From the NCBI GenBank assembly GCA_944387545.1, contig CALXFE010000003.1:12309-76308 (forward strand): a DNA stretch of 64,000 nucleotides, in the 5' to 3' direction. The notes beneath the pieces are model-generated. The model worked only from the letters and a program-made list of their open reading frames with translations, did no database searches and had not been told where the DNA came from. Below, in pieces: positions 1-58,867 of the stretch (position 1 is its first letter; every line of letters starts with the position of its first letter). This DNA is from an uncultured Clostridia bacterium. Lineage in GTDB: Bacteria; Bacillota; Clostridia; TANB77; CAG-508. Made by a program: the position numbers and the translations under genes.

Positions 1-81
1 TTTTTAAAGAGTGAAAATCGAAAGTTGTAATTAAAAAGAAAAATGTAAAATGAGAATATTTTTACATTTTTCTTTTTATTA

Positions 82-801
82 CTAAATCAATTTTTCTGCC
101 AAAGCTAATTGCTCTTGATTTAAATTAAAATCTTGTCCGTTATTTTTAATCAAATTATGTAGATTTTCTATAACTCTTGCTTGATTAATTATTTTTTCTA
201 ATGGCGCTAAATTATTTAATGCTTGTTCTATTTTATTATACTCTTTTTCCATTGCTCCAAAATCTTTATTATTAAAATTCTGTTTCCAATTATTCATATA
301 TTTTTCCATATTTTCTAATCCAATATTTTGTTCTCTAAATTTTTCTTCTATATTATTTTCTACACTATTTAATATAATATCTTTCCCTTGTTTAATTATA
401 TTCGTAATATTATAGTCTAATAATCCTTTTTGATTCACTTTATCAACAACAGTATCCAATAATGAGGAAATTCCATCAATTAAGCCTCCCGTCTCAATTG
501 CACTTTGCATTTGTGAAACATTTTCAAAATTGCCTGTAAATATTCCTATTGCACTTTTTCCTACATCTATTGCATCATCTATTGTTTTTGTAATTCCATC
601 TTTTAATCCATAATTTAATAAATTATCTTTTATATTAATAATTTGTTCATCTATAAAATCTGGTAATAAAGCTCTTATTCCAATATCTATAGCTGTATTT
701 ATTGTTTTTCCCAATGTAGTTTCTAAAAAGCTTTTTTGCTCTTCGTTCCTATTTATTTCATTATTTAAATTTATTTCATTTTCTATTTTATTTATATCCA
801 T
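82..801 (-). CDS. Hypothetical soluble protein, 239 aa, Asn/Ile/Glu-rich
   Basis: Intact ORF with an AAGGTGG ribosome-binding site about 5 nt upstream of the ATG at 801. I recognise no family. It has visibly more G+C than the tract upstream of it. Confidence 0.55.
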   Translation of the reverse strand: MDINKIENEINLNNEINRNEEQKSFLETTLGKTINTAIDIGIRALLPDFIDEQIINIKDNLLNYGLKDGITKTIDDAIDVGKSAIGIFTGNFENVSQMQSAIETGGLIDGISSLLDTVVDKVNQKGLLDYNITNIIKQGKDIILNSVENNIEEKFREQNIGLENMEKYMNNWKQNFNNKDFGAMEKEYNKIEQALNNLAPLEKIINQARVIENLHNLIKNNGQDFNLNQEQLALAEKLI

Positions 802-1210
802 ATACCACCTTGTACAATATAATTATTTTTAAAATTTATTATATTATATTTTCCTTTCTTCATTGATTATTTTATTTTTTATAATTTCGATTTTTTATAA
901 AAATTATTTGTTTTATTTTTTACTAAAAAAATTAATTTATTTATTATTTATTTTTAGTCTTTATTTTTTATTTATTTTTCAAATTCTAAATAATTTTTTA
1001 ATTAATTTTTTTATTAAATTTATTATATTATTTATATATATTTTTTGTTTATTTCTTTATAACTCATGAAATATTTTTTATTGATTTGAAATTTTTTAAT
1101 TTCTTTATGTCTTTTTTAATTCGTATTTATCTGACAAATTTTTGTTGTTAATAAAATCACTCTCCTTTATTCTTAATCTTGTATTTTTATTTTTGTTAAA
1201 TATCTTTTAA

Positions 1211-4200
1211 ATTTTATTTTTGATTTATGTATACTTTATTTTTGTCTCAAACTAATTTTTACTTTTTTATTCATTTTCCTTTTTTTCTTATTTACGTAGT
1301 CTTTATTTCCACTTTTTGTACAAATTTTTTTATTTGTTTTTGAACTTTTTTTCATTTCTTTTTATAAAATTTATTATATTGGTAAACCTCTTTTGGGGTA
1401 ATTTTTAATCATTTATAATTTACAAATTTAGGTTTTATTTTTGAATTTTCTCTTTTTAATTTATGTTTACTTTTGTTTTTTGTATTCTTTTTTATGAATT
1501 TTTTATTGTTATGTATTTACATTTTTTACCATATTTTTATGTGTTTGTTTTTAACTTTTAAATTATTTTTATATTATTTTTATTTTCTTTTTATTATAAT
1601 TCAATTTATTATTTTTTTAATTTATTATCTTTTAATTTATTATTTTTTAATTTATTATTTATTTTATTATTTAAATAATTATTATATTTATAAAATCTAT
1701 TTATTTTATTATAATTTTTAATGAGTATATATAATTTTTTTATTATTTTTTATAAATTATATATTAATTATTTTTATTTTTAAGGCTATTTAATAGATTT
1801 TAGATATTTTTTATTTAATTAAATATTTTTTCTATTTTTTTAATATCAAAAAGTACTTATTATTTTTTATACTTTTTATTTTTTTATTATTATTTTTATA
1901 ATTTTTTTTATTTTTATTTTTAATTATAAATTTTATTTTTTTATTAAGCTTAAAATTAATAAATTAATTTCTCATTTATTTTATATAATTTTTAGTTTAA
2001 CTTATTTTATCAAAAACAATTTTTCTTTTATTTTTATATTCATCTTTTTCATATTTCAAATTCTTCTTTTTGCCTTTGTCTTTTCTTCCTTTAATTTATA
2101 TTACGTTTTTTATATCTACCTTCTTTTTAAAAAGATTTTTAAACTTATTTTCTTTCTAACTTTTATCAGATTTCCTTTCAATTTTATTTTTGCTTTATGT
2201 TTACTATGCTTTTTTAGTTGTCTTTGTCATCCATTTTTTATTCATTTTGACTTTTTTCTTATTTGCCTAGTTTTCAATCCACTTTTTTTAGCAATCTTTT
2301 TGTATTTTAAAATTACTTTTTGTATTTATTTCTTATAAAATGTATTATATTGGTAAACCTCCTATTTATAATTTTAATTGATCACTTTTTATCAATTTTA
2401 GATTTTTCTTTCAAATTATTCTTTTTGAATTTATGTTTACTTTTGGTTTTTATTTCTTTTTTACTAATTTTTTCTTTTTATACTTTTTAGTTTATTTTAT
2501 ATATTTTTTTATCTTTCTTTTTATTTTTTTGTCTTTAATTTTTTATTAATTTATCTTTTTTTTTCAATTTTTATTACTTAATTTTTTTATACATCATTTA
2601 TTTATTTTTATATTTTTTATTTTTTATTTATTTTTAATAAAAAAAAATATTTTAGTTGTTTTTTTTGTTTTTATTAATAAATTATCTTTAATAAATTTTT
2701 ATATCATTTATTATATATCTGATCATTCATCGTTTAATATTTTATTAATAATATTTATTTATTAATTTATTATTCAATTAATTCTTTTATTTATAGAATC
2801 TAATTATTTCATTATATTTTTTTATTAATTATTTATTTAATTATGTATTATATATTTTTATTATAATTTTTTAGAAAAAAATTTTTATTATTTATTAATA
2901 ATCTTTATTTTATTTAATTAATTATTATATTAATAATTTTTTAATATAAAATTAATTTTTTTATATTAAATAAATAAAAATAATTACTTTATTTTTTTTA
3001 TTTCTTTTAATATTTGGGGAAATTGATTTATTTTATAGAAATGATAATTTCTAATTATATATATATCTATTTTACATTTTATTTATATCCTTCTTTCTTT
3101 TTACTTTTTTCCATTTTATACATTTGTTTTTTTGTATTATTAATTTTATTTCTTAAAAGTATCTATGTCATTACTATCTTTTTTCTTTAAATTTCTTTCA
3201 ATTTTATTTTATATTTTATGTTTACTGTGCTTTTTTTCTATCTTTACTATCTCTTTTATATTCATTTTGACTTTTTTCTTATTTGCCTAGTCTTTAATCA
3301 ATCTTTTTTTATCAATTTTTTGTATTTTAAATTTACTTTTTGTATTTATCGGTTATAAAATTTTTTATATTGGTAAACTGCCTTTTTGTAATTATAATTG
3401 ATTAATTTTTCTCAAATTTAGATTTTTACTTTCAAATTATCTCTTAAAAATTTATGTTTACTTTTGTTTTCTAAATTCTTTCGGTATCTTTTTTCTTTGT
3501 TATGTTTTTACATTTTTTACCATATTTTATATTTCTTTCTATTTTTTTGTCTTTAATTCTATATTAGTTTATCCTTTTTATTTTTATGTTTTAATTTACT
3601 AATTTTATTCATTTATTAATTATTATTTTTTAATTTTATATTTTTATTTTTTTAAATTTAAAAAAATTCTTTAATTAATTCTCATTTATTTATTTTTATT
3701 AATAAATTTTATTTATTATTATAAATTATTAATATCAATTTTTATAATTTTTTTATTTTTATTTATATATCTAATTATTTATTTATAATATTTTATTAAT
3801 AATCTTTTTTTATTTATATTTATTAATTTATTTGGTGTAATCCACTTATTTTTTTATTAAATCCATTTATTTTATTCTAATTTATTCTTAATCATTTAAT
3901 TATTTTTTTATATTTTATAATTATTTATTATTTTTTTATTTTAACTATATTTATATTATTATTTTTTTATTTTAACTATATTTATATTATTATTTTTTTA
4001 TTCAAAAATATTTTTATTTAATTAAATATTTTTTTTTATTCTTTTAATTTTTTAGTATTTTTTAATAAAAAAATATTTTAGTTAAATTTTTTATTTTTTA
4101 TAATAAATTTTATTTTCTAATTTATTATTTATTTATAATTTTTTTCTTCTCAATTTTTTATTTTAGTTTTTATTACTAAATTATTTTTTTATATATTAAT

Positions 4201-4625
4201 ATTATCTATTATTTGTTAATTTATTTTTTACTTTTATTTCACTTCTTCTTTCTTTTTTGTTCTTTCTTTTTATACTTTTGTCTTTATATTATTACTTTTT
4301 ATTCTCAATATAATTTTTTACTTTTTGTTTTTATTAGCTTATTCTTCAATTTTTATTTTAATTTTATGTTTACTATATTTTTTTCTTATTTTTTTCTATC
4401 TTTTTTTATTCATTTTTACTTTTTCTTTATTTGCGTAGTTTTATTTCTACTTTTTATATTACTTTTTTTGTATTTTATTTTTATATTTTGTTTTTATTTG
4501 ATATAAAATTTATTATATTGGTAAACTTCCACTTTATAATTTTAATTGATAAATATTTTCTAAGTTTAGATTTTCTTTTGTTGTTTATACCTCTTTTATT
4601 TATGTTTACTTTTGTTTTTTGAATT
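1211..4625. repeat. Four ~1-kb direct repeats in an ORF-free, ultra-AT-rich tract
   Basis: Conserved ~275-bp cores lie at about 1211-1485, 2181-2455, 3201-3475 and 4349-4625. Each contains TATATTGGTAAAC (1376, 2346, 3366, 4514) and two copies of TTATGT(T/A)TAC. The anchor spacing is about 970, 1020 and 1148 bp. Confidence 0.85.
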
Positions 4626-4820
4626 GTTTTTGATAAAATTTTTTCATTTATTCTTTTAGATTGTTATATTATTTATATGTACTTTCTATTATCTTTTTTA
4701 TTACAAATTTTATTTTCATATTATTTACTAATTAATTTTTTATTTAAAATTTTTATTATTTAATTTTTTTATTATTTGCTTTTTTATTTATTTTTAATTA
4801 AATTTAAAATCTTTTATTTT

Positions 4821-5861
4821 TTAATTTAAATTAATTATTTTTATTTTTTTAAATTTATTTTTTAATAATCTTTTATAAAAATATTTTGATAAATTATTTT
4901 TTATGTAATTATTTAATATTAAATATGTATTTATATTTTCTTTTTTTAATTTATTTAATTTTAATATATTTTTTTTATTATTTTCTAAAGTTATTATATT
5001 TATATATTTGGCCTGTATTGGTATTTTATTTATATTTTTATAAAATCCTTGAATATTAAATATTATATAATCATTATTTTTATTATATTTTCTAATTAAT
5101 TTCTTTAATATTCTTTTTTTTATTAAATTATTTTTATTCTTTAATACATTGTTTATATTTTCTATTTCTTTTATTTTATTATTTATTCTTTTTTCTTTTA
5201 TTTTAATTTTTAAATTTAATTTGTATATTTTTTCTGTTTTATTTATTTTTATTATTTTTCTATTTATTGTTTTATTATTTTTTTCTTTTTTTATATTTAT
5301 TTTTAAATTAATTATAATTATATTTTTATTTTTTATAATTAATTTTTTTAGTATAATTAATTTTATTATATCTTTATCAATTTTATTTTCTCCAAATAGA
5401 AATATCATGTTGTTTTTATTTTTTATTAAATTTTTATTTTTATAATTTATCATATTTTTTAATTTGATTATATTTATCTTTTTTTTTCTATTGATATTTT
5501 GATTATTAATAAAATATTTTTTTTCTTTTAAATTTTTAATTAATTTATAAATACTAAATATATTATTATAATAAATATCTATCATTTTTAATTTTATTAA
5601 ATCTTTTTCTATTTTTTTATTTTCTAATATGATAATTATTTTTATTTTTTTGTTTGTCTTCTTTATATTTTCTATTAATTTAATTAAATTTATTTCTCCA
5701 GGAATTTTTTCACTAATAATAATTACATCTATATTTTTATATTTTTTTAATATATCAATAATTGCTTCTTTATATAAAATATTTTTATTTTCTGTTATTG
5801 TATTTTTTATTATTTTTTTTAATATTTTTTCATTATTTATAGCAGTTATTATATTAGGCAT
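4821..5861 (-). CDS. Lys/Ile/Asn-rich hypothetical protein, 346 aa, possibly a receiver-like N-terminus plus a degenerate ParA/MinD-like half
   Basis: A 346-codon open frame in DNA almost devoid of G/C, which is unlikely by chance. It overlaps the end of the upstream VirB4-like gene by 8 nt, suggesting translational coupling. The expected Walker A position reads FGENKIDKD, so no intact P-loop is present. Confidence 0.5.
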   Translation of the reverse strand: MPNIITAINNEKILKKIIKNTITENKNILYKEAIIDILKKYKNIDVIIISEKIPGEINLIKLIENIKKTNKKIKIIIILENKKIEKDLIKLKMIDIYYNNIFSIYKLIKNLKEKKYFINNQNINRKKKINIIKLKNMINYKNKNLIKNKNNMIFLFGENKIDKDIIKLIILKKLIIKNKNIIIINLKINIKKEKNNKTINRKIIKINKTEKIYKLNLKIKIKEKRINNKIKEIENINNVLKNKNNLIKKRILKKLIRKYNKNNDYIIFNIQGFYKNINKIPIQAKYINIITLENNKKNILKLNKLKKENINTYLILNNYIKNNLSKYFYKRLLKNKFKKIKIINLN

Positions 5862-7695
5862 CCTTTTTTTCTCCCTTTATTATTTCGTATTCATCATCAG
5901 AACATTCTATTTTTGTTAATATATGATCTTCTCCTACAAACATCAAACATTCTCCTCTTTTTAATGATTTTATTTCTATCTTTTCTTTTTCTGATAAATT
6001 TGCATATTCTGATAATACTTTTATATTTTCTTCTTCTAATGCAAAAAAGGTTTTTATACTAGAATTATTTAATATACTTTTTCCATAGATTCCTTCTTCT
6101 AAGCTAAACAAATCGGATATATCTTGTGTTATTGCAACACTACTGCCACCATATTTTCTTATTGTTTTAAATATTTTATAGATAAAACTTGCTACATTTT
6201 TATTTGAAGTTACACCTATTAATCTCCATATTTCATCAAGATATATTGCCTTTTTTTCTTTTCTATTTTCTTTTATTTTATCCCAAAAAATATCTGTAAA
6301 TAAATACATGCCATATTTTAGATTTTCTTCTCCTAATTCATATATATCTGCAATAATTAATTCATTTTTTAATTCTATATTTGTATAATTATTAAAAAAT
6401 TTCATTGATCCTTTTACAAATGGAATTAATTTTATTGAGAATTTTTCTGTTCTTTTATCTTTTCGTAAAATATTATATAAATCTTCTAATATAGGCATAT
6501 CTTTTTTATTTTTAAATATATTTTTTTTATTTTCTTTTTTATATAAAGATTTATCATCAAAATTAATCTTTTTTTCATTATATGTTTCAATTAATTTTTC
6601 TTCTATTAATGCTTTATCTTCTTCATTTAATTCTCCAAAAATTAAATGAAAAAAACCTATTAATTTTCCTATTTTTGTTGCTAAATATCCATTTTCTCCA
6701 TCTTCAATGCTTTCTTTTCTGATTTCCAATATATTTATATATGTATTTGAATTTGGACCTATAATAATTCTAGTACCTTTTAATTTTTCACTTAAACTAA
6801 CATATTCACGTTCCGGATCAATAATATATTGCTTTATTCCCATCAATCTGTATCGTAATATCAATAATTTTGTGTAAAAAGATTTTCCTGCACCGCTTGT
6901 CCCAAATATACATATATTAGCATTTTTATATTTTTCTGTATCATACCTATCTATAAAAACGATAGAATTGTTATAAATATTTGTTCCTATAAATATACCT
7001 TCATTATCAAATATTGATGATGAAACAAATGGATAGGTAGCCACTAGACTAGATGTAAGTATATTTCTTTTAGCTACATTTTTTATTAATTTATGATTTT
7101 CCATTAAGGGTAAGCAAGCTTTAAATGTTTCTTCTTCTCTAAAATTTGCTCTTCTTGTTTGCAATCCTTTGCTTTGCGAAATACCCTCTATTTTATTTAA
7201 TAAATATTCTAATTCTTTTATGTTCTCTGCATATACTAATAAATATATATACACGTAATACATTTCTTCATTATTTACTTGCATTTCTTTTCTAATATAT
7301 TTTGCATCTCCATATATGGATGTTGCTATATCTATATCTTGTCTATTTTCATTATTACTTTTTACTTCTAATCCCACATTTCCTATATGATAAGTTAATT
7401 CTTTTATAACTCTATAGGAATCTTGTTTTTCATAGAAAATAGATATATTTACATTGATATTACTTTCTATAATATTTTTTAATATTATATCTGTTTGTTC
7501 TCTATAATAATCTACTATTATAATCCCTGCATAATATAAATTGTCAATTTCTATATATTTAGGATTTTGCATATTTATATATGAAGGTGAAATTTTATCT
7601 TTTTCAAAAATTGTACCTTCATACAATTTTAAATTTTCTTCTTTATTTTTATTGATTATTTCTTTTATAATATTTCTACTCCTCCTTTTGATCAT
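5854..7695 (-). CDS. VirB4/TrsE-family T4SS ATPase, second copy, 613 aa
   Basis: Walker A GTSGAGKSF and Walker B AIYLDEIWRL are present. The layout parallels the VirB4-like protein at 31018-32964. Confidence 0.8.
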   Translation of the reverse strand: MIKRRSRNIIKEIINKNKEENLKLYEGTIFEKDKISPSYINMQNPKYIEIDNLYYAGIIIVDYYREQTDIILKNIIESNINVNISIFYEKQDSYRVIKELTYHIGNVGLEVKSNNENRQDIDIATSIYGDAKYIRKEMQVNNEEMYYVYIYLLVYAENIKELEYLLNKIEGISQSKGLQTRRANFREEETFKACLPLMENHKLIKNVAKRNILTSSLVATYPFVSSSIFDNEGIFIGTNIYNNSIVFIDRYDTEKYKNANICIFGTSGAGKSFYTKLLILRYRLMGIKQYIIDPEREYVSLSEKLKGTRIIIGPNSNTYINILEIRKESIEDGENGYLATKIGKLIGFFHLIFGELNEEDKALIEEKLIETYNEKKINFDDKSLYKKENKKNIFKNKKDMPILEDLYNILRKDKRTEKFSIKLIPFVKGSMKFFNNYTNIELKNELIIADIYELGEENLKYGMYLFTDIFWDKIKENRKEKKAIYLDEIWRLIGVTSNKNVASFIYKIFKTIRKYGGSSVAITQDISDLFSLEEGIYGKSILNNSSIKTFFALEEENIKVLSEYANLSEKEKIEIKSLKRGECLMFVGEDHILTKIECSDDEYEIIKGEKKDA

Positions 7696-8260
7696 AATTT
7701 TTATTTAAATATTTTTTTGTATTCAAAAATGAAAAAAAGATTTTTAATATTTCTTTTTTTTCATCAATAACAATTACTTTATTTCCACATCTTGATAAAC
7801 ATTCTTTTATTTTTAAATATTTTTCATTTAATTCTTGCTTTATAAATTCATAATTTTTTTCTTTTTTGTTGATTGGATTATTTTTTATTATGATATAAAA
7901 TTTTTTAGATGCTGATTTTTTATTAATATTTAGATTAGAAATATAATTAATATATTTTTCAGCTAATTTTTTTAAATGTTTATTTTCTTTTTTTAATAAA
8001 TTATTTTTTATTTTTGAAATATGATGACTTAAATCTTCTTTATTACTTTGAATTAAAATTTGAATATTAAAATTACAAGTTTTAAAAAAAATTTTATATG
8101 AATTTAAAATTGCTTCTTTTTCTAAATCAGATTTTAAATTATAATTTATTGGTATTATTTCTAAAATTTTTATAAGACTACTATTCTTTAATTCTATAAT
8201 ACCATCTTTAAAAATTTGTTTTATTGGTATCCATTCTTGTACACTTTTTTTATTTATTTT
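7676..8260 (-). CDS. Unlisted ORF of ~190 codons, paralogous to the soluble N-terminal region of the 29845-31005 protein, with no canonical start codon
   Basis: My own translation of the minus strand is open from the TAA at 8263-8261 to the TAG at 7678-7676. It reads ...WIPIKQIFKDGIIELKNSSLIKILEIIPINYNLKSDLEKEAILNSYKIFFKTCNFNIQILIQSNKEDL.... This aligns with FDKIEDNMIIRKKGRQYIMAIECQGINYDLMSGLEKNSVEQGFLQFLNTLRYPIQLYIQTRTVNL. The ORF overlaps the VirB4-like start by 20 nt. The only candidate start near the RBS is ATA at 8257. Confidence 0.6.
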   Translation of the reverse strand, partial: KINKKSVQEWIPIKQIFKDGIIELKNSSLIKILEIIPINYNLKSDLEKEAILNSYKIFFKTCNFNIQILIQSNKEDLSHHISKIKNNLLKKENKHLKKLAEKYINYISNLNINKKSASKKFYIIIKNNPINKKEKNYEFIKQELNEKYLKIKECLSRCGNKVIVIDEKKEILKIFFSFLNTKKYLNKNYDQKEE

Positions 8261-8282
8261 TTATCACACTCCTTTGAAAGCA

Positions 8283-8311
8283 ATTTTACATTATTTTACA
8301 TTACTTGTCAA
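8283..8311 (-). promoter_or_regulatory. Sigma-70/SigA-type promoter for the small-ORF/VirB4-2 operon
   Basis: On the minus strand: TTGACA (8311-8306), a 17-nt spacer, then TAAAAT (8288-8283). An AAAGGAG RBS follows at about 8275-8269. Confidence 0.55.
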
Positions 8312-8892
8312 GAAAAACATTTTGACAAATTTCGACTTTCTTTTTCCTTATTTCAGGTTTACCATTTTTTTCTTTTGTTTCTTTTTCCAAAATATTATAT
8401 CTTCTTTCTGTTATTTTTTCATTTTTCATTTCTTTTTTTCTGCTTTTTTCTTTACTTTTATGTATACTATTTTTTTTATTTATTATCTCTTTCTTAATAT
8501 TTTTTGTTTTTCCTTTATTGTATATATGCGTAATTATTTTTTTAATTACTTTTTTTACAAAACTGTCTAATTTTGTTTTCTAACAAATTACTTTTTATAA
8601 TTTTATTTCTTGTATTTTTTATAATATATTTGATCTTTTATTTTTTCCTTTTCTCTTTTCTTTAATATTTTTTCTTCTGCTTTTGCTTAACATAATTTAA
8701 AAATAATATTACATTTGATAAATTATAATTCTGTCATAACTTTATTGCTTTTTACAATATTTGTGATTTTTCTTTTTTCTATCTCACTTATTTTATTTGT
8801 TTTTTTATTTTTATTTTTTACTATTTTAATATTAGTTTTTATCTATCACTATTTTTATTCATTAATTTTATTTATTCTTGTTTTTTATTTTT

Positions 8893-8970
8893 ATATTATT
8901 ATTTATTTATATTATTATTTATTTATATTATTATTTATTTATATTATTATTTATTTATATTTATTATTTA
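8893..8970. repeat. 16-bp tandem repeat ATATTATTATTTATTT, about 4.8 copies
   Basis: Four perfect consecutive units read directly from the sequence, followed by a partial copy. Confidence 0.8.
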
Positions 8971-9290
8971 TTGCTTTATTATTTTTTATTTTTTTGAATA
9001 TTTTATTTTTTTTTGTACATAATAATATTATAAAGTTAATAATAGTTAAGAAAAATAATAATATTTTTTAATTAATTTATTATTATTTGTGTGCGATATA
9101 TTATTTTATTTTTTATTATAATTTATCGCTTATAAAAATATATTATTCTTTGTAGTTTTTTATTTATTTTTTATTATATTTATTTGTTTGTGGCAAAGTT
9201 ATATATAATATATTTTATTTTTTATTTTTCATATAAAATATGATAATTAAAAATTGTATATTAATTTAATTATTATTAGCTTTATTGATT

Positions 9291-9323
9291 AATGGCAGAT
9301 AATAATAAATATTATCTGCCATT
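9291..9323. terminator. 13-bp-stem hairpin downstream of gyrB
   Basis: AATGGCAGATAAT (9291-9303) pairs with ATTATCTGCCATT (9311-9323) around a 7-nt loop. The hairpin sits 29 nt past the gyrB stop. Confidence 0.6.
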
Positions 9324-9351
9324 AAATTTGTAAAAATAAATTTATATATTT

Positions 9352-50439: not shown

Positions 50440-51009
50440 TTGAAAGAAAGGAATGAAAACAACATGAATAAAAAAATCGTTATTATTTTTACTGTTTTAT
50501 TAATTATAATATTAGTAGGAGGATATTGTATTATCAATTATTTTAAAGGTCAAGAGGAAACAACGATAGAAGAATATACACCAGAAGAGGAAATTACAGA
50601 AGAACAAAATCGACAAACCATTGTCAGTTTATATTTCTTAGAAAAAGATACAAAAGAATTAGCACCTGAAGCAAGATTAGTGGATATTAAGGAAATTATA
50701 AATCAACCATATGATAAATTGGTAAACATGTTAATCGAAGGCCCTAAAAATGAAAAGTATGAAAAGTTAATTCCAGACAATACAAAATTAAATCAAACAT
50801 ATAAAGAGAACGATACGGTTTATTTAGATTTTTCAAGTGAGTTTTTAAACTATAACAAAGAAGATATTCAGGTAAAAGAAAATATGATTAATAGCTTGGT
50901 TAAGACTTTAACACAACTTACAGAAATAAATTCAATTAAAATCTTAATTGATGGGCAAGAAAATGAAGCATTTGCTGAAGTGTATCGTTTGGAGCAAAAA
51001 GAATCATAA
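50440..51009 (+). CDS. GerMN-domain (GerM-like) sporulation/germination lipoprotein-like protein
   Basis: TM or signal segment, then VSLYFLEKDTKELAPEARLV...LIEGPKN...VYLDFSSEF...IKILIDGQ. Confidence 0.7.
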   Translation: MKERNENNMNKKIVIIFTVLLIIILVGGYCIINYFKGQEETTIEEYTPEEEITEEQNRQTIVSLYFLEKDTKELAPEARLVDIKEIINQPYDKLVNMLIEGPKNEKYEKLIPDNTKLNQTYKENDTVYLDFSSEFLNYNKEDIQVKENMINSLVKTLTQLTEINSIKILIDGQENEAFAEVYRLEQKES

Positions 51010-53627: not shown

Positions 53628-54230
53628 GTGATGGATTTGTTAAACTTAGTTTGGCCAATTTTTATAATAATATCATTTGCTTATGCAATTTTTTCGGGAA
53701 ATCTAGAAAATTTAAATACCAGTATATTTGAAAGTGTTGAAAATGCTGTAAATTTAAGCATAACCATGTTAGGAACCATGTGTTTATGGAGTGGCATTAT
53801 TCATATTGCTAACAATACAAGAATCATTCAGGCAATTCATAAATTATTAAAACCAGTTATTCATTTTCTTTTTCCAGAAATAAAAGAAAATAAAAAAGCA
53901 CAAAATGAAATTTCTATGAACATGGTGGCCAATATTTTAGGATTAGGAAATGCTGCAACACCATTGGGATTAAAAGCGATGGAGACACTACAGAAAGACA
54001 ATAAAAATAAAAAAGAGTTAAGTAATTCTATGATAATGTTAATTGTATTAAATACAGCTTCCATTCAGATAATTCCTACAACGATTATAGCTATAAGAAG
54101 TTCTTTAGGCTCAGAAAATCCTACTTCTATTATTTTTCCTGTATGGATTGCAACGATTTGCGCAGGAGTAGCAGGAATCACCATAACAAAATTATTCATT
54201 AAGTATTCTAACAAAAGGGAGAAAACATGA
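53628..54230 (+). CDS. spmA: Spore maturation protein A
   Basis: Nucleoside-recognition-type membrane protein paired with spmB. Confidence 0.8.
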   Translation: MMDLLNLVWPIFIIISFAYAIFSGNLENLNTSIFESVENAVNLSITMLGTMCLWSGIIHIANNTRIIQAIHKLLKPVIHFLFPEIKENKKAQNEISMNMVANILGLGNAATPLGLKAMETLQKDNKNKKELSNSMIMLIVLNTASIQIIPTTIIAIRSSLGSENPTSIIFPVWIATICAGVAGITITKLFIKYSNKREKT

Positions 54231-54757
54231 TAGAATTCATTAATTTTATATCCAATTTGGCAATGCCATTGATTATATTAATCATTGTAATATATGGTTT
54301 TATTGAAAAAAAAGAAGTTTTTGATAAATTCATAGAAGGTGCAAAAGATGGGATAAAAATTGTAATTAATATATTTCCAACTTTAATAGGTTTGTTTTTA
54401 GCTGTAGGAGCATTAAGAAGTTCTGGTATCATTGATATAGCAATAAAACTAATTGATCCCATATTACATTTAGTAAACTTTCCAAGTGAAATTATGCCAC
54501 TTGCCATTCTACGACCAATTTCAGGAAGCAGTTCAATTGCAATTGCAACAGATATCATGAAAACCTTTGGCGTAGATAGCCAAATAGGAATCATGGCATC
54601 TGTTATCATGGGGGCAACAGAAACAACTTTATATACAATAGCAGTCTATTCATCAAGTGTAAAAATAAAGAAGACAAGATTTGTATTAATTGCCGCATTA
54701 ACCGCAGATATTGTTGGAATAATAACAAGTATAGTGGTTTGTCGTTTTTTGTCGTAA
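54227..54757 (+). CDS. spmB: Spore maturation protein B
   Basis: Overlaps spmA by 4 nt and has the typical membrane profile. Confidence 0.8.
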   Translation: MIEFINFISNLAMPLIILIIVIYGFIEKKEVFDKFIEGAKDGIKIVINIFPTLIGLFLAVGALRSSGIIDIAIKLIDPILHLVNFPSEIMPLAILRPISGSSSIAIATDIMKTFGVDSQIGIMASVIMGATETTLYTIAVYSSSVKIKKTRFVLIAALTADIVGIITSIVVCRFLS

Positions 54758-54764
54758 AGTTTTT

Positions 54765-54794
54765 CTTGACAATATTTAACATATACTGTATAAT
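54765..54794 (+). promoter_or_regulatory. Near-consensus promoter in the spmB-rlmH spacer
   Basis: TTGACA (54765-54770), an 18-nt spacer, then TG-TATAAT (54787-54794). Confidence 0.55.
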
Positions 54795-54826
54795 AATGGA
54801 AATTGATTCAGTAAGGACATTTATAT

Positions 54827-54961
54827 ATGTTATTAAAAATCTTAATATTTATTTCAATATTTTTTATGATAAGAAGCATAATGATTAAAGTTTTATTAAA
54901 CAGACTGTTAAATTCTAAAACAAATTCAATAAAACAAAAAACAAATAAAAAAGTAAAGTAA
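54827..54961 (+). CDS. Candidate 44-aa small membrane peptide MLLKILIFISIFFMIRSIMIKVLLNRLLNSKTNSIKQKTNKKVK
   Basis: An AAGGA RBS lies 9 nt upstream and the promoter lies 33 nt upstream. One hydrophobic helix is followed by a basic tail. Confidence 0.35.
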   Translation: MLLKILIFISIFFMIRSIMIKVLLNRLLNSKTNSIKQKTNKKVK

Positions 54962-55264
54962 ATAAAAACATAAAATATACATATGTGAAAGAAGAAAAGT
55001 ATATATTGACTATATAATTATATTTGAATCAACTAACTCAGTTTTTAAATTTGTAGAGGAAATAACAATTCCCCCATAATTAGTATTTAAAAAAATTTTT
55101 GCCCCTATATTATATTTTAAATATTTTTTTTCTAGTTATTTTCTCTACAATAAAATATAAAATAATAAATAATAAATAATAAATATTAAATCTAATATTA
55201 ATATAAAATAATAAAAATAAAATAATGAATTTATATAAAATGATAAATTCGTTTAAAATACGGT

Positions 55265-55744
55265 TTATCTATGATAAGTTTCACCATGAGATATTTTAAA
55301 GCCTCTAAAGATTTGTTCTAACAAAAATACACGAATTAATTGATGGGGAAAAGTCATTTTTGAAAAACAAATTTTTTGATGAGCTTTTTTTAATATATCA
55401 GAAGAAAGACCTAAAGAGCCCCCAATGACAAAAGTAACAGAACTTGTTTCTAATGATAAATTTTCAATATTTTTAGAAAATTGTTCAGAAGAAAGCTCTT
55501 TACCAGTTAAGTCTAAACAAATGATATAGGAATCTTTCTTTATGTGATTTAAAATATTATCAGATTCTTTCTTTTTTATTTCATTCGCAATGTTTTCATT
55601 TAATTTATCTGGTATTTTTTCATCAGGCAATTCTAAAATTGTTAGTTTACAGTATTTACTTAATCGTTTGGCATATTCTTTTATGGCATCTTTCAAATAG
55701 TTCTCTTTAATTTTTCCAATACATACAATATGAATATTTAACAT
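55265..55744 (-). CDS. rlmH: 23S rRNA m3-pseudouridine1915 methyltransferase RlmH
   Basis: 159-aa SPOUT-family protein with C-terminus ...LEQIFRGFKISHGETYH. Confidence 0.9.
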   Translation of the reverse strand: MLNIHIVCIGKIKENYLKDAIKEYAKRLSKYCKLTILELPDEKIPDKLNENIANEIKKKESDNILNHIKKDSYIICLDLTGKELSSEQFSKNIENLSLETSSVTFVIGGSLGLSSDILKKAHQKICFSKMTFPHQLIRVFLLEQIFRGFKISHGETYHR

Positions 55745-57990: not shown

Positions 57991-58656
57991 CTATTTTTTA
58001 GCAGTTATTAGACCAGTATTATTAAGAAATTCTAATATTTTAAATTTGAGCTTAATATTTAAACTATCATTATCAGAGACAATGGCAAATTCTTCATCAT
58101 TTAAGGAGTTTTCTAAATCTTCCTTAGATTCTTCAGGAACAACGCCAGAAGATACATCTGTAAAACATAGTGGAGGGAACATGACACACCACCAATTTTG
58201 TCCTTTGGCTTCACCTATTTCTACCCTTAAAGCATCATAGTACCCAGCAGGAAGTGAAATATCACCATAATGTTTTGTAGGAAATTCAAAATTACCAATG
58301 CGCACATTAACAGAATAATCAAATCCCTCATTTTTAATTGTATCTAAAGCAATTTTTTTAAAAGTTTCAATATTTTGTTGTGCAATAAGAATGGCTTCTT
58401 CTTTGGTAGAGCAATCTGCACATAATGTATTCATATATTCTAGTAAGTTATCTCTAACAATATACTTTAAATTTTGATCAATCTCCGTATCACTGTTAGC
58501 AATAACATGGAGTCTAAAAACAGAATTCGAAATATCGGTAGATATATAATTAGCATAAGAAACGGCACAGATGCTTGTATATACAAAAAGTAGAAAAGCT
58601 AAAATAATTACCATTTTTACCTTGGAATTTTTAAATAGATTTAAAATTTTTTTCAT
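57991..58656 (-). CDS. spoIIR: Stage II sporulation protein R
   Basis: FRLHVIANSD...QNWWCVMFPPLCF. Confidence 0.85.
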   Translation of the reverse strand: MKKILNLFKNSKVKMVIILAFLLFVYTSICAVSYANYISTDISNSVFRLHVIANSDTEIDQNLKYIVRDNLLEYMNTLCADCSTKEEAILIAQQNIETFKKIALDTIKNEGFDYSVNVRIGNFEFPTKHYGDISLPAGYYDALRVEIGEAKGQNWWCVMFPPLCFTDVSSGVVPEESKEDLENSLNDEEFAIVSDNDSLNIKLKFKILEFLNNTGLITAKK

Positions 58657-58867
58657 AAGTTACCTCCAATAAACTTTTTTTCTAAAATATTCTTTAAGAT
58701 AAGTATTAACAAAATAAGAAAAAATATACATTGTCGAAAAAAAACGATGGATTTTCATTGAAATATGATTGACATATTTGTAACAAAATGGTAAAATTTA
58801 CCAGTAAACAAAATTAAGAAATGCAGAATTCCGTATAATTATATAAGTTTGAAAGGAATGTGTTATA

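Follow-up and report, generated by a model that had tools for sequence, protein, structure and literature searches.

The window, a 64,000-nt stretch from the genome of an uncultured gut bacterium of the Clostridia (TANB77-type), carries an extremely AT-rich region downstream of gyrB. The start of gyrA lies ~12.3 kb downstream of gyrB on the source contig, past position 1 of the window, confirming the claim of the first-pass annotation that the gyrB-gyrA neighbourhood is interrupted. Among TANB77-type gut Clostridia, ~60 genomes at species level share the order gyrB-[virB4N, VirB4 ATPase, ParA-like p346, p239]-gyrA. In the window, the following features were identified:

9289-9325, minus strand: hairpin 3' of gyrB, with a 16-bp stem and no U-tract, delimiting the AT-rich stretch at its upper end
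8338-9288, no strand: ultra-AT-rich non-coding spacer from gyrB to the operon promoter, including a 32-nt tandem repeat
8321-8337, minus strand: tandem direct heptads AGTCGAA-ATT-TGTCAAA, with two mismatches to the clade consensus
8283-8311, minus strand: sigma-70-type promoter TTGACA-17-TAAAAT, with 11/12 matches the best site in 1-9500
8269-8275, minus strand: Shine-Dalgarno sequence AAAGGAG of virB4N, reading GGAGGTGA in most species
7676-8257, minus strand: virB4N, a TrsD-like VirB4 N-terminal domain of 193 aa, with an inferred ATA start at 8257-8255 and a TAG stop at 7678-7676
7681-7688, minus strand: Shine-Dalgarno sequence AAAGGAGG of the VirB4 ATPase gene, inside the end of virB4N
5854-7695, minus strand: VirB4 ATPase, corresponding to the C-terminal two thirds of a complete VirB4; 613 or 605 aa depending on the start
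4821-5861, minus strand: p346, a MinD/ParA-family protein with a conserved N-terminal domain of ~105 aa; GC 8.3%
802-4820, minus strand: array of four ~1-kb tandem units, non-coding; GC 11.2%
4344-4646, 3197-3501, 2176-2476 and 1207-1509, minus strand: higher-GC cores within the four units
82-801, minus strand: p239, a conserved all-helical protein, encoded by the final conserved gene of the module, ahead of gyrA

The GC content of 863-9290 is 13.6%, compared with 27.8% for the remainder of the window, and falls to sliding-window minima of 5.8-6.8%, in agreement with the extreme AT-richness first described beside gyrB. Non-coding DNA at 8261-9351 has 13.5% GC, and one further equally AT-rich spacer (12.1%) separates recF and dnaN at 12387-13089. 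The plus strand is indeed T-rich (AT skew -0.3 to -0.49), but this is not specific to the stretch, since the skew extends through the flanks to ~15 kb and thus reflects replichore and gene orientation rather than the AT-rich stretch alone. Across 1,000 Markov-simulated 8.4-kb sequences with the composition of the array, the longest stop-free run was at most 101 codons (mean 56), and with the composition of p346 the maximum was 94. The 613- and 346-codon minus-strand frames (5854-7695 and 4821-5861), which overlap by 8 nt, are therefore far above chance length. These lengths and a dN/dS of 0.06-0.07 for the ATPase (recF, 0.07-0.10) substantiate the purifying selection proposed for the long frames. 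Three such frames had been described, of which these two stand, whereas the third (7676-8260), although open for 194 codons, has no usable ATG, GTG or TTG and is for that reason missing from the ORF listing; a GTG in frame upstream is followed by TGA TAA.

The first-pass annotation had named this third frame a partner ORF, correctly as regards its openness, but had missed both its identity as a VirB4 N-terminal domain and its absent canonical start. virB4N matches positions 1-179 of NF045971 (VirB4, CD1110 family), the TrsD profile NF041427 (E=1.8e-8) and positions 4-143 of TIGR00929, and it aligns with residues 129-294 of a full-length plasmid VirB4. The ATPase fills positions 186-730 of NF045971 (296 bits) and matches Pfam P-loop_TraG (66.5 bits), AAA_10 (55.6 bits) and DUF87 as well as the VirB4 structure PDB 4ag5 (E=1.7e-41). 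As previously noted, both Walker motifs of the 613-aa protein are intact (GTSGAGKS, residue 265; IYLDE, residue 484). The operon pair is colinear with one 942-aa plasmid VirB4, and shares fold and motifs with the MPF_FATA VirB4 of the CD1110 family (Tn916/CTn-type, PrgJ/TraE/TcpF-like; 296 + 36 bits), although each ORF by itself stays below the curated NCBIfam cutoff of 325 bits. An N-domain on its own gene is also seen in TrsD/TraD of pSK41/pGO1/pIP501-type systems, as in TrsD/TrsE. No species has the two ORFs joined; their relative frames vary, and in some species they lie >900 nt apart. ATPase identity is 71-95% in 80 species loci, and virB4N has a dN/dS of 0.17-0.32.

In most species, both genes appear to start at AUA or AUU behind strong Shine-Dalgarno sites, which, like the 36% identity to the nearest mobile relative, distinguishes them from MPF_FATA VirB4 genes. 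In a comparison across species, the virB4N start codon is ATA in 42/67 cases, ATT in 12/67 and ATG in 10/67. The ATPase could start at ATG 7695 (613 aa), which lacks a Shine-Dalgarno sequence, or at ATT 7671-7669 (605 aa), 9 nt after one; in most of the 80 loci an in-frame Ile codon follows AAAGGAGG by 7-9 nt. The location of this site within the end of virB4N suggests translational coupling. The AUU start of E. coli infC is an example of a conserved near-cognate start codon, and the operon's AUU/AUA codons are likewise kept in many species, each preceded by a good Shine-Dalgarno site. However, they belong here to two consecutive secretion-ATPase genes, with AUA as common as AUU, and we know of no link to IF3 autoregulation.

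The 346-aa overlapping protein had been described as rich in Lys, Ile and Asn, and these residues do make up 66% of p346. The window's protein has no Pfam or NCBIfam match. Its orthologues match CbiA/ParA (39 bits, cutoff 25.4) and AAA_31, with a weak Response_reg match below cutoff, and the family profile matches MinD 4v03 (E=2.5e-7), CapB and Soj. In the family alignment, other species carry GNYKSGKST where the window and relatives L059, L003, L008 and L006 carry GE[ND]KI[DN]K (GENKIDKD in the window); L004, outside that alignment, has this form too. On these profile matches and alignments, p346 is a member of the MinD/ParA family that has lost its Walker A in this subclade. Its ORF is intact in six close relatives (dN/dS 0.27-0.50). 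The N-terminal ~105 aa, with S, Y or N at the would-be phospho-acceptor Asp position, may be a pseudo-receiver, judging from sub-threshold Pfam matches and our reading of the alignment. TadZ/CpaE proteins of Tad/Flp pilus systems join an atypical receiver domain to a MinD/ParA-like domain and act as polar localisation hubs. p346 resembles them in its C-terminal MinD/ParA-family domain, its weakly Response_reg-like N-terminus and its position beside a secretion ATPase gene, but there are no tad genes nearby and no direct sequence match to TadZ, and Walker A has been lost in several p346 sublineages, including that of the window. The resemblance is one of architecture rather than of demonstrated homology.

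The fourth gene, p239, was overlooked in the first-pass annotation, and it is part of the operon module: it lies downstream of VirB4 in 53 loci (identity 45-84%, dN/dS 0.11-0.19). It has no match to curated NCBIfam, PHROGs or PADLOC families and a sub-threshold one to Pfam BAR_3 (20.6 bits, cutoff 24.9). Homologues form 402 representative clusters in 1.84 billion proteins, with none on 72,556 plasmids. The AlphaFold2 model (pLDDT 89.6, pTM 0.82) has no Foldseek neighbours in PDB or BFVD (best E=0.33-0.38).

Expression of the operon had been attributed to a near-consensus promoter at 8283-8311. The total of promoter-like sites in 1-9500 is no higher than in shuffles (107 versus 111.6), and this site is credible because it is conserved across species, with the consensus TTTTTCTTGACAA-17-TAAAAT in 68 loci, in keeping with a promoter at this place. 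The heptads upstream of it had been missed. Their clade consensus, TGTCGAA-N3-TGTCGAA, equals the core consensus of the Spo0A 0A-box. Heptads with at most three mismatches occur in 57/68 species, in 51 at a fixed spot 26 nt upstream of the -35 start, while 4/1,399 random 45-nt windows attain an equal score. A scan of 1.35 Mb of loci gave 57 matches, 47 of them directly upstream of a TTGAC -35. In Spo0A-controlled sigma-A promoters, the 0A-box core TGTCGAA is contacted at G2, C4 and G5 (PMC3485338), the best conserved positions of the operon heptads, which also match those promoters in forming a direct repeat, spaced by 3 nt, immediately ahead of the -35. The operon promoter differs in having consensus -35 and -10 hexamers at 17-nt spacing, so that it does not look activator-dependent, and we regard the heptads as a candidate Spo0A site. 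They also resemble, with equal repeat geometry, the CtsR operator RGTCAAA-NAN-RGTCAAA (PMC1409795). Sporulation genes of the organism include spoIIR (177.6 bits, cutoff 151.9), a Germane domain and an SpmA/B-like pair; the gene for Spo0A is not on the DNA covered by the analysis. Two further promoters in the window carry similar modules, and the genes downstream of them are not classical Spo0A targets.

The non-coding DNA on either side of the operon was also characterized. The hairpin behind gyrB has a predicted RNA folding energy of -21.3 kcal/mol (z = -6.0, 200 shuffles). Between it and the heptads, the spacer contains 3.1 copies of the 32-nt repeat (8890-8991, 92% matches) and no minus-strand ORF of at least 25 aa apart from a 42-aa frame at 8301-8429. 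Compared with the corresponding contig from another sample (L086), it has 91.7% identity and 12% gap columns, and therefore evolves like spacer. The decaying tandem array on the other side is a feature that the first-pass annotation missed. Its repeat families recur at spacings of 971, 1020 and 1148 nt with 60-72% identity, and its longest minus-strand open run (60 codons) equals the null. Recognisable copies are kept in the closest relative (L059) only. Compared with L086, the array is 96-100% identical save for unit 2 (1720-2620), at 60-80%, and the divergence at third codon positions is 4.7%; the units seem to evolve roughly neutrally. In L068, the units occupying the position of the array clearly copy parts of the ParA-like gene, and the relic motif was counted 47 times in sense and once in antisense orientation across 66 kb of arrays. 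tblastn, hmmsearch and nhmmer did not show descent of the window's own four units from p346. The array units are probably decayed duplicates of this gene, and the ~4 kb between p346 and p239 (11% GC) would then be a roughly neutral graveyard of ParA-like tandem duplicates.

Profile searches over 1-9350 detected no pilin, VirB6 or hydrolase, as had been claimed; the operon encodes no membrane protein. In contrast to MPF_FATA conjugation systems, it lacks a relaxase, coupling protein, VirB6, VirB3 and hydrolase, and is not on a mobile element but fixed between gyrB and gyrA across the whole clade. A T4SS-like main locus at 27.6-42 kb of the window contains a pilin array, membrane proteins, a cell-wall hydrolase and its own VirB4, likewise split (386 aa + 648 aa; homologues 88-100% identical), with no relaxase or coupling protein seen. 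Beside soj-spo0J, this locus keeps the same synteny in L082, L084 and L085, the three related contigs that were looked at, and it shares a contig with the gyrB-linked operon in two genomes (the window and L037/L082). The VirB4 pair most likely supplies the main locus with a second, separately regulated ATPase module, a proposal made from sequence and gene order that agrees with one of the readings offered in the first-pass annotation. We favour, with moderate confidence, the overall explanation that an inherited gyrB-gyrA operon under Spo0A-type control encodes a split VirB4 serving the main T4SS-like locus.

Alternatively, the operon could encode a stand-alone machine, unrelated to the main locus, that resides in the cytoplasm or at the septum and handles DNA or chromosomes as sporulation begins, in which a split VirB4 (a HerA/FtsK-superfamily motor), a MinD/ParA protein and p239 would be domesticated conjugative-element parts in the dnaA-gyrA core. 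This possibility, which we consider unlikely, is consistent with the position inside a block of replication and topology genes, the lack of membrane, pilin and hydrolase genes, the ParA-family partner and the absence of a plasmid counterpart of p239. Moreover, the main-locus promoter lacks tandem heptads, so that the two loci do not obviously form a single regulon, and the operon VirB4 is closer to plasmid VirB4 (36%) than to its main-locus paralogue (27%), indicating a separate origin. However, to our knowledge the TrsD-like N-domain and the VirB4 fold, matched here through NF041427 and NF045971, occur solely within membrane T4SS assemblies; soj/spo0J already adjoins oriC in this genome; repeated loss of Walker A argues against an ATP-driven segregation role; and the main locus accompanies the operon with the linkage and synteny described above. 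A module for defence against phages, centred on a DUF87/VirB4-like ATPase akin to mad8 of the MADS system, is very improbable: PADLOC gives a mad8 match (E=1.8e-21, 75 bits, residues 234-599) and a weak DndH match, but the former spans the shared P-loop domain only, while the CD1110 match includes the VirB4-specific middle region and the N-domain gene matches TrsD and VirB4. In addition, the neighbouring genes include no methyltransferase, nuclease or other MADS component, and defence islands are variable whereas the gyrB-gyrA locus is fixed and syntenic.

The region had been called an island, possibly a remnant of a different element. A recent insertion or decaying remnant could account for the very low GC, the split VirB4 without canonical start codons, the degenerate Walker A of p346, the 4 kb of dead repeats and the lack of any further T4SS gene in the stretch. 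This reading is already contradicted, and we give it hardly any credence. In the relatives the operon is present and syntenic in ~60 species, within a wider order dnaA-dnaN-recF-gyrB-virB4N-VirB4-p346-p239-gyrA (~60 loci), and VirB4 identity follows gyrB identity (Pearson 0.78, Spearman 0.61, p=4e-7). The dN/dS values given above for the ATPase, virB4N and p239, a host-like GC3 (VirB4 0.11, gyrB 0.09), a closest plasmid VirB4 at only 36% identity, and a promoter, Shine-Dalgarno sites and even unusual start codons common across species likewise oppose it, and no integrase, att repeats or tRNA were found at the borders. The operon is thus an old, vertically inherited chromosomal unit, which became fixed between gyrB and gyrA before this clade radiated. 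The extreme AT content is due to low-complexity coding sequence and ~5 kb of non-coding DNA, not foreign origin, and would result from host mutational bias on unconstrained or low-complexity sequence. A chimeric contig with breaks at ~860 and ~9290, conceivable for a short-read metagenome SPAdes contig with ~10x coverage crossing low-complexity DNA, is excluded because ~60 independently assembled genomes from various studies and hosts show the same junctions and gene order and L086 aligns colinearly end to end (21.8 kb, 92.9% identity).

The closest parallel is in Patescibacteria, which carry a chromosomal, oriC-proximal MPF_FATA-type T4SS with VirB4, TrsD and VirB2-like pilin arrays but no relaxase, near dnaA, dnaN, rpmH and rnpA, for which co-option to a function other than conjugation has been suggested (PMC12102498). 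The window and its relatives share this relaxase-less, chromosomal, oriC-proximal pattern. In contrast, the present host belongs to a spore-forming-type Clostridia lineage rather than the CPR, and two VirB4/TrsD pairs flank oriC, the second between gyrB and gyrA with a ParA-like gene and p239; gyrB or gyrase is not mentioned in the Patescibacteria study (PMC12102498).

Returning to the favoured explanation, in which the operon serves the main locus, its conserved sigma-A promoter would be controlled by a factor bound at the two tandem TGTCGAA heptads (~-61 to -45), most likely phosphorylated Spo0A, in which case expression would be tied to stationary phase or the onset of sporulation. This promoter step is grounded, like the accounts of the array and of the AT content, in sequence evidence, and the steps that follow are inferred. 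The transcript would encode a VirB4 motor in two pieces, a TrsD-like N-domain protein and a P-loop ATPase, with AUA/AUU starts that should hold output low or regulatable and with the second gene coupled to termination of the first. p346, of TadZ/CpaE-like architecture and a pseudo-ATPase in this subclade, may position or scaffold the complex, with p239 as a lineage-specific partner. By analogy with the roles of VirB4 and TrsD in MPF_FATA systems, the two parts would assemble into a VirB4-type ATPase. This would dock on the relaxase-less T4SS-like apparatus, whose genes lie across oriC at a distance of ~20 kb, and would serve there as a second module under separate regulation, either energising the apparatus or handling substrates.

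The window belongs to a metagenome contig of 137 kb, assembled with SPAdes (ENA ERZ24773349, BRZ_GL NODE_108), and covers the replication origin region. The nearest genomes are MAGs of uncultured gut Clostridia, recovered from human, rabbit, chicken, mouse and sheep hosts, among them Clostridium sp. CAG:343, CAG:575 and UMGS1663. The genus UMGS1663 has been placed in the GTDB order TANB77, and the TANB77-type clade has been linked to immunotherapy response (PMC11680825). Through this relationship, the window itself is probably of TANB77 type. Related loci and contigs from such genomes are designated by L numbers. The main features are as follows.

14533-15894, minus strand: dnaA
Minus strand, with dnaA, recF and gyrB: dnaN
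11292-12386, minus strand: recF
9352-11280, minus strand: gyrB
8283-8311, minus strand: promoter of the gyrB-linked operon
7676-8257, minus strand: virB4N, a TrsD-like frame
5854-7695, minus strand: VirB4 ATPase, 613 aa
4821-5861, minus strand: p346
802-4820: non-coding tandem array
82-801, minus strand: p239
Plus strand: rpmH-rnpA-yidD-yidC-jag-mnmE-mnmG-rsmG-soj-spo0J
27684-42019: main T4SS-like locus, after soj-spo0J-DUF4446 and tRNA-Ser genes

Positions 863-9290 had been described in the first-pass annotation as an ultra-AT-rich island beside gyrB. The composition was readily confirmed, at 13.6% GC vs 27.8% in the rest of the window, with local minima of ~6%. GC3 is alike in all genes tested (0.06-0.12; gyrB 0.09, VirB4 0.11), so the low GC is no foreign signature but a bias of the genome itself, expressed where sequence is non-coding or rich in Lys, Ile and Asn. 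Strand skew reaches far outside this stretch. The recF-dnaN spacer (12387-13089) is equally AT-rich at 12.1% GC, and in some species (L020, L031, L017) it has grown to 1.4-3 kb at ~9% GC; ultra-AT-rich spacer expansion thus recurs in the clade. Between gyrB and the operon promoter lies a 32-nt tandem repeat, TTTATATTATTATTTATTTATATTATTATTTA (8890-8991; 3.1 copies, 92% matches). Rfam at the gathering threshold returned two tRNA-Ser genes for the whole window and nothing within the AT-rich stretch, where a tRNA scan also gave no match. Mis-assembly was excluded because L086, an independent contig, is colinear with the source contig across 21.8 kb. The minus-strand frames of 613 and 346 codons, which the first pass had taken as genuine, are at least three times the longest stop-free run (101 codons) seen in 1,000 composition-matched simulations.

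Presence in related genomes was assessed by a scan of one genome per species, which gave 312 loci with a relative of the 613-aa protein. Among the best 80 of the 312, VirB4 identity is 71-95%, and the order dnaA-dnaN-recF-gyrB-virB4N-VirB4-(p346)-p239-(variable genes)-gyrA is found in nearly all loci of sufficient length. This synteny, with the operon between gyrB and gyrA, is fixed in about 60 species. Few gene orders in Firmicutes are as stable as the gyrB-gyrA pair of the dnaA region; here, as had been suspected, gyrA is displaced, lying 12.3 kb beyond gyrB in the source contig. Median identities to the window are 91% for gyrB, 86% for dnaN, 84% for dnaA, 77% for VirB4, 75% for recF, 65% for p239, 62% for virB4N and 48% for p346, and VirB4 identity is correlated with that of gyrB (r=0.78). 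Purifying selection had been proposed for the long frames. Measured against five close relatives, dN/dS is 0.06-0.07 for VirB4, in full support of this, 0.07-0.10 for recF, 0.11-0.19 for p239 and 0.17-0.32 for virB4N; for p346 (0.27-0.50) the claim stands in weaker form, its constraint being relaxed but real. In some species a 548-aa gene lies between p239 and gyrA, outside the window (L001 18413-20059); its nucleotide identity between two strains is 85.5%, vs ~98% for neighbouring genes.

These results do not support an island. The synteny shared by about 60 species, the tracking of gyrB by VirB4 and the host-like GC3 all argue against one. A conjugative element (ICE or plasmid) was likewise rejected: neither 1-9350 nor the main locus matched a relaxase, T4CP or integrase, the AT-rich stretch is bordered by neither direct repeats nor tRNA and lacks att borders, and the distribution is fixed rather than patchy. 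Among 72,556 plasmids, the closest VirB4 is 36% identical and a p239 homologue is absent. Native to the genome and ancient, the operon in the AT-rich stretch has a conserved, predicted regulated promoter and is followed by a repeat graveyard. An extreme-composition "island" can prove to be native DNA.

The ATPase gene was examined for the Walker motifs reported earlier, and both are indeed intact (Walker A GTSGAGKS at residue 265, Walker B IYLDE at residue 484). The protein aligns to the VirB4 C-terminal domain structure 4ag5 (E=1.7e-41) and passes the Pfam models P-loop_TraG (66.5 vs a cutoff of 25.8) and AAA_10 (55.6 vs 27.5). The two frames divide one family model between them: virB4N (194 codons) matches positions 1-179 of NF045971 (CD1110-family VirB4) and the 613-aa protein positions 186-730, with scores of 36 and 296 bits that are each below the cutoff of 325 alone and above it as a simple sum. 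TIGR00929 scored 57 vs a cutoff of 643, virB4N matching its positions 4-143. virB4N further aligns to residues 129-294 of full-length plasmid VirB4, and jointly with the ATPase it is colinear with a 942-aa PrgI-VirB4 fusion on a Vescimonas plasmid. Like a TrsD/TraD gene, virB4N lies directly upstream of the VirB4 gene and colinear with it, with a match to the TrsD model NF041427 (E=1.8e-8, 34 bits) under the cutoff of 200. The two ORFs are separate in all species, in varying relative frames (+1, -1, 0) and with a gap that ranges from -10 to >1,000 nt, reaching 0.9-1.5 kb in some species and 7.8 kb in one. These comparisons indicate that the gyrB-linked VirB4 is split, not broken. A programmed frameshift from virB4N into VirB4 was rejected because frame and gap vary and a strong Shine-Dalgarno (SD) site precedes the ATPase gene.

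The gyrB-linked ATPase is 27% identical to that of the main locus; it is nearer to plasmid VirB4 (36%), to which the main-locus ATPase is 23% identical. The two copies therefore belong to different lineages rather than to a recent duplication. Assignment to the MADS defence system (mad8) was also rejected, since the PADLOC match is at P-loop level only (75 bits) and partner mad genes are lacking. A literature search for orphan VirB4 in Clostridia returned nothing relevant. In L057 (958-1623; 6418 onward) there is a second copy of the heptad-bearing promoter and virB4N upstream of recF, and the ATPase gene lies 7.8 kb from this duplicated copy.

Both genes of the split VirB4 have unusual predicted starts. 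The virB4N frame is without a usable ATG, GTG or TTG; its sole in-frame GTG sits inside the SD site, and TGA TAA comes next. Of 67 species, 42 have ATA as the in-frame codon 7-11 nt downstream of GGAGG, 12 have ATT and 10 have ATG. For the ATPase gene, the codon 7-9 nt after AAAGGAGG is ATA in 31, ATT in 30, ATC in 4 and ATG in 10 (80 species), and no canonical start is found upstream of the conserved N-terminal segment in 50/80. The neighbours dnaN, recF and gyrB start with ATG in 168/170 cases. Two candidate starts are present in the window's ATPase frame: an ATG at 7695 that lacks an SD, and an ATT (7671-7669) 9 nt beyond AAAGGAGG, this SD and the ATT being separated by the virB4N stop codon. 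From this pattern we infer AUA/AUU initiation together with translational coupling. Conserved predicted initiation of this kind in two consecutive genes is an unusual, testable feature.

The near-consensus promoter noted in the first pass was recovered as the best sigma-70-type match in the region (TTGACA-17-TAAAAT, 8311-8283). Alignment of 68 loci on the -35 hexamer gave the consensus ATGTCGAAtTtTGTCGA..AAtTTTTCTTGACAA-17-TAAAAT. Just upstream of the -35, a tandem TGTCGAA-N3-TGTCGAA with three or fewer mismatches is present in 57/68 loci, at one fixed position in 51. The heptad score was reached by 4/1,399 random windows, and when 1.35 Mb of fetched loci were searched, 47 of the 57 best matches were the operon promoter site. 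TGTCGAA is the core of the Spo0A 0A box, in which the protein contacts G2, C4 and G5 (PMC3485338), and these are the best conserved heptad positions across loci. As expected of a Spo0A-regulon promoter, the 68 species yield a TGTCGAA-N3-TGTCGA consensus at a fixed position, a candidate pair of 0A boxes. The CtsR operator, RGTCAAA-NAN-RGTCAAA (PMC1409795), shares this arrangement but not two of the positions in each heptad. Three sporulation-type loci lie in the window.

57991-58656, minus strand: spoIIR (TIGR02837, 177.6 bits vs a cutoff of 151.9)
50440-51009, plus strand: Germane/GerM-like protein, sporulation-type
53628-54757, plus strand: SpmA/SpmB-like pair of Gate-domain proteins, sporulation-type

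Given spoIIR, the Germane-domain protein and the SpmA/B-like pair, it is plausible that the factor binding the heptads is a sporulation regulator. The spo0A gene itself lies outside the sequences analysed. A promoter with textbook tandem Spo0A-type boxes is itself an unusual and testable feature. Two further promoters with a module of tandem TGTCG heptads plus TTTTTCTTGACAA were observed on the plus strand: one at 54740-54800, preceding a 44-aa hydrophobic ORF (54827-54961), and a weaker one at 58732-58790, between spoIIR and a 154-aa MEDS-like gene. Rfam at an E-value threshold gave no match on 54700-55300. No conserved promoter motif was found upstream of p239.

The window p346 has no family match in Pfam or NCBIfam. 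Orthologues from less biased genomes pass the CbiA/ParA (39 vs 25.4) and AAA_31 models, and the family profile matches the MinD (4v03, E=2.5e-7), CapB and Soj structures. The deviant Walker A of MinD/ParA proteins, xKGGxxK[ST], is replaced in the window protein by GENKIDKD. The form GNYKSGK[ST]T is present in 9/20 aligned p346 sequences, and loss of the motif is seen in the subclade of the window and in two or more further lineages. Because of these orthologue and profile matches and the window's GENKIDKD, the family is read as MinD/ParA-derived and the window member as a predicted pseudo-ATPase. Conservation is highest over the N-terminal ~105 residues; their Response_reg matches are weak and below cutoff (E=0.007-0.017), and the phospho-acceptor Asp position is taken by S, Y or N in the p346 alignment. 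TadZ/CpaE proteins combine an atypical receiver domain with a MinD-like domain and are encoded in a tad/flp pilus locus. The suggested receiver-like and MinD-like layout of p346 recalls them in architecture only, tad genes being absent near p346 and direct sequence matches lacking. On sequence grounds, p346 is most simply a scaffold. The gene is intact at 8.3% GC and 66% Lys+Ile+Asn, its GC being below that of the surrounding non-coding DNA, and in six close relatives it is open at 339-360 codons and ~8% GC. A 346-codon gene kept open at such composition is a further unusual, testable feature.

Downstream of p346, all three minus-strand frames of 802-4820 are full of stops, the longest open run (60 codons) equalling the null. 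The array has four tandem units, spaced by 971, 1020 and 1148 nt, with ~300-nt cores of higher GC that are 60-72% identical. Short MNKK... frames in the units (5 to 18 codons) were rejected as coding because their lengths are not conserved. Recognisable copies of the units occur only in the closest species, L059; many other species have their own tandem arrays in the same interval, with periods of 516-1335 nt. Compared with L086, a near-identical strain, array identity is 96-100% everywhere but in one unit at 1720-2620 (60-80%), with many indels and a third-codon-position divergence of 4.7%, a pattern that indicates roughly neutral evolution with unit turnover. No constraint on the cores was detected in this comparison, spacer identity being as high as that of the cores and near third-position divergence. 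The deviant unit at 1720-2620 suggests unit replacement or gene conversion.

The origin of these units was sought in p346. Searches with 14 p346 orthologues (tblastn vs 863-4820, real or reversed) and with a protein HMM of six close p346 sequences (three-frame translations) gave no match, a DNA HMM built on the ParA C-terminal region produced a noise match in the reversed control only, and blastn of p346 vs the array was swamped by low-complexity matches and uninformative. In L068, the units are plain partial copies of the ParA-like gene. A relic motif for the ParA-like LG(I/V)K segment occurs 47 times in sense vs once in antisense in 66 kb of arrays, and the window units retain CTAGGCAAATAAG. 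Descent of the window units from p346 is thus suggested by L068 and the relic motif, and is considered probable, since no direct similarity was found. In the window (802-870), L059 and L075, the distance between a conserved GAAAGGAG and the p239 ATG is widened by additional AT-rich DNA that includes a short inverted repeat.

The last gene, p239, is conserved in 53 loci under purifying selection, and its family forms 402 representative clusters among 1.84 billion proteins. A first AlphaFold run on a shallow alignment gave pLDDT 48; a second, with diverse representatives, gave a confident all-helical model with pLDDT 89.6. Foldseek found no neighbour in PDB or BFVD, PDB profile and sequence searches with p239 and one p346 orthologue were empty, and PHROGs had no match for p346, virB4N or p239. 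The model thus predicts a new helical protein. As a whole, the operon is predicted to encode a split VirB4, a ParA-derived scaffold and this new helical protein; the absence of other T4SS parts remarked on in the first pass held, with no VirB3, VirB6, VirB8, hydrolase or pilin gene.

Such parts are present in the main locus, which encodes an array of VirB2-like pilins, large membrane proteins, an M23/lysozyme/M15 hydrolase and a VirB4 that is likewise split, into a 386-aa N-domain protein and a 648-aa ATPase. Homologues of the 386-aa protein in related contigs carry Pfam TraC-like (PF26593). A relaxase and coupling protein were not detected there. The synteny is the same in the three related contigs examined (L082, L084, L085), and the VirB4 homologues are 88-100% identical among the 120 best matches. 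In the window and at least one other species (L037/L082), the main locus and the operon are on one contig, ~20 kb and ~17 genes apart across oriC. A relaxase-less, dnaA-proximal MPF_FATA-type T4SS is essential for the epibiotic lifestyle of Patescibacteria (PMC12102498). The main locus is similarly relaxase-less and oriC-proximal, a parallel that hints at a shared non-conjugative T4SS use in reduced-genome bacteria.

We lean, by a little, towards the operon acting as an accessory module, under its own regulation, of the chromosomal T4SS in this clade, with which it shares a contig and the split form of VirB4. The main rival, a T4SS-independent role, is doubtful but merits attention: no tandem heptads precede the main locus in the window, L082 or L084, and the two ATPases differ in lineage. 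Three features were least expected: the fixed position between gyrB and gyrA, the Spo0A-type boxes and the predicted AUA/AUU starts. A more ambitious reading of the accessory module, which we regard as improbable, joins them: TANB77-type bacteria would have an order-wide, non-mobile, relaxase-less T4SS flanking oriC, with the gyrB-gyrA operon as its developmental switch. A second VirB4/TrsD motor, gated by Spo0A and with its translation throttled through AUA/AUU starts, would be joined by a TadZ-like positioning protein and the new-fold partner p239, and these would redirect or activate the apparatus as sporulation begins, for instance to move DNA or protein from cell to cell or between mother cell and forespore. 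To our knowledge, no link to a sporulation programme has been described for any known T4SS; if the joint reading is true, a T4SS would be wired into that programme.

For the biology of the clade, uncultured TANB77-type gut bacteria gain a relaxase-less T4SS near oriC that parallels that of Patescibacteria. A secretion-motor operon fixed within gyrB-gyrA across a whole order-level clade represents conjugation machinery domesticated into the core genome.
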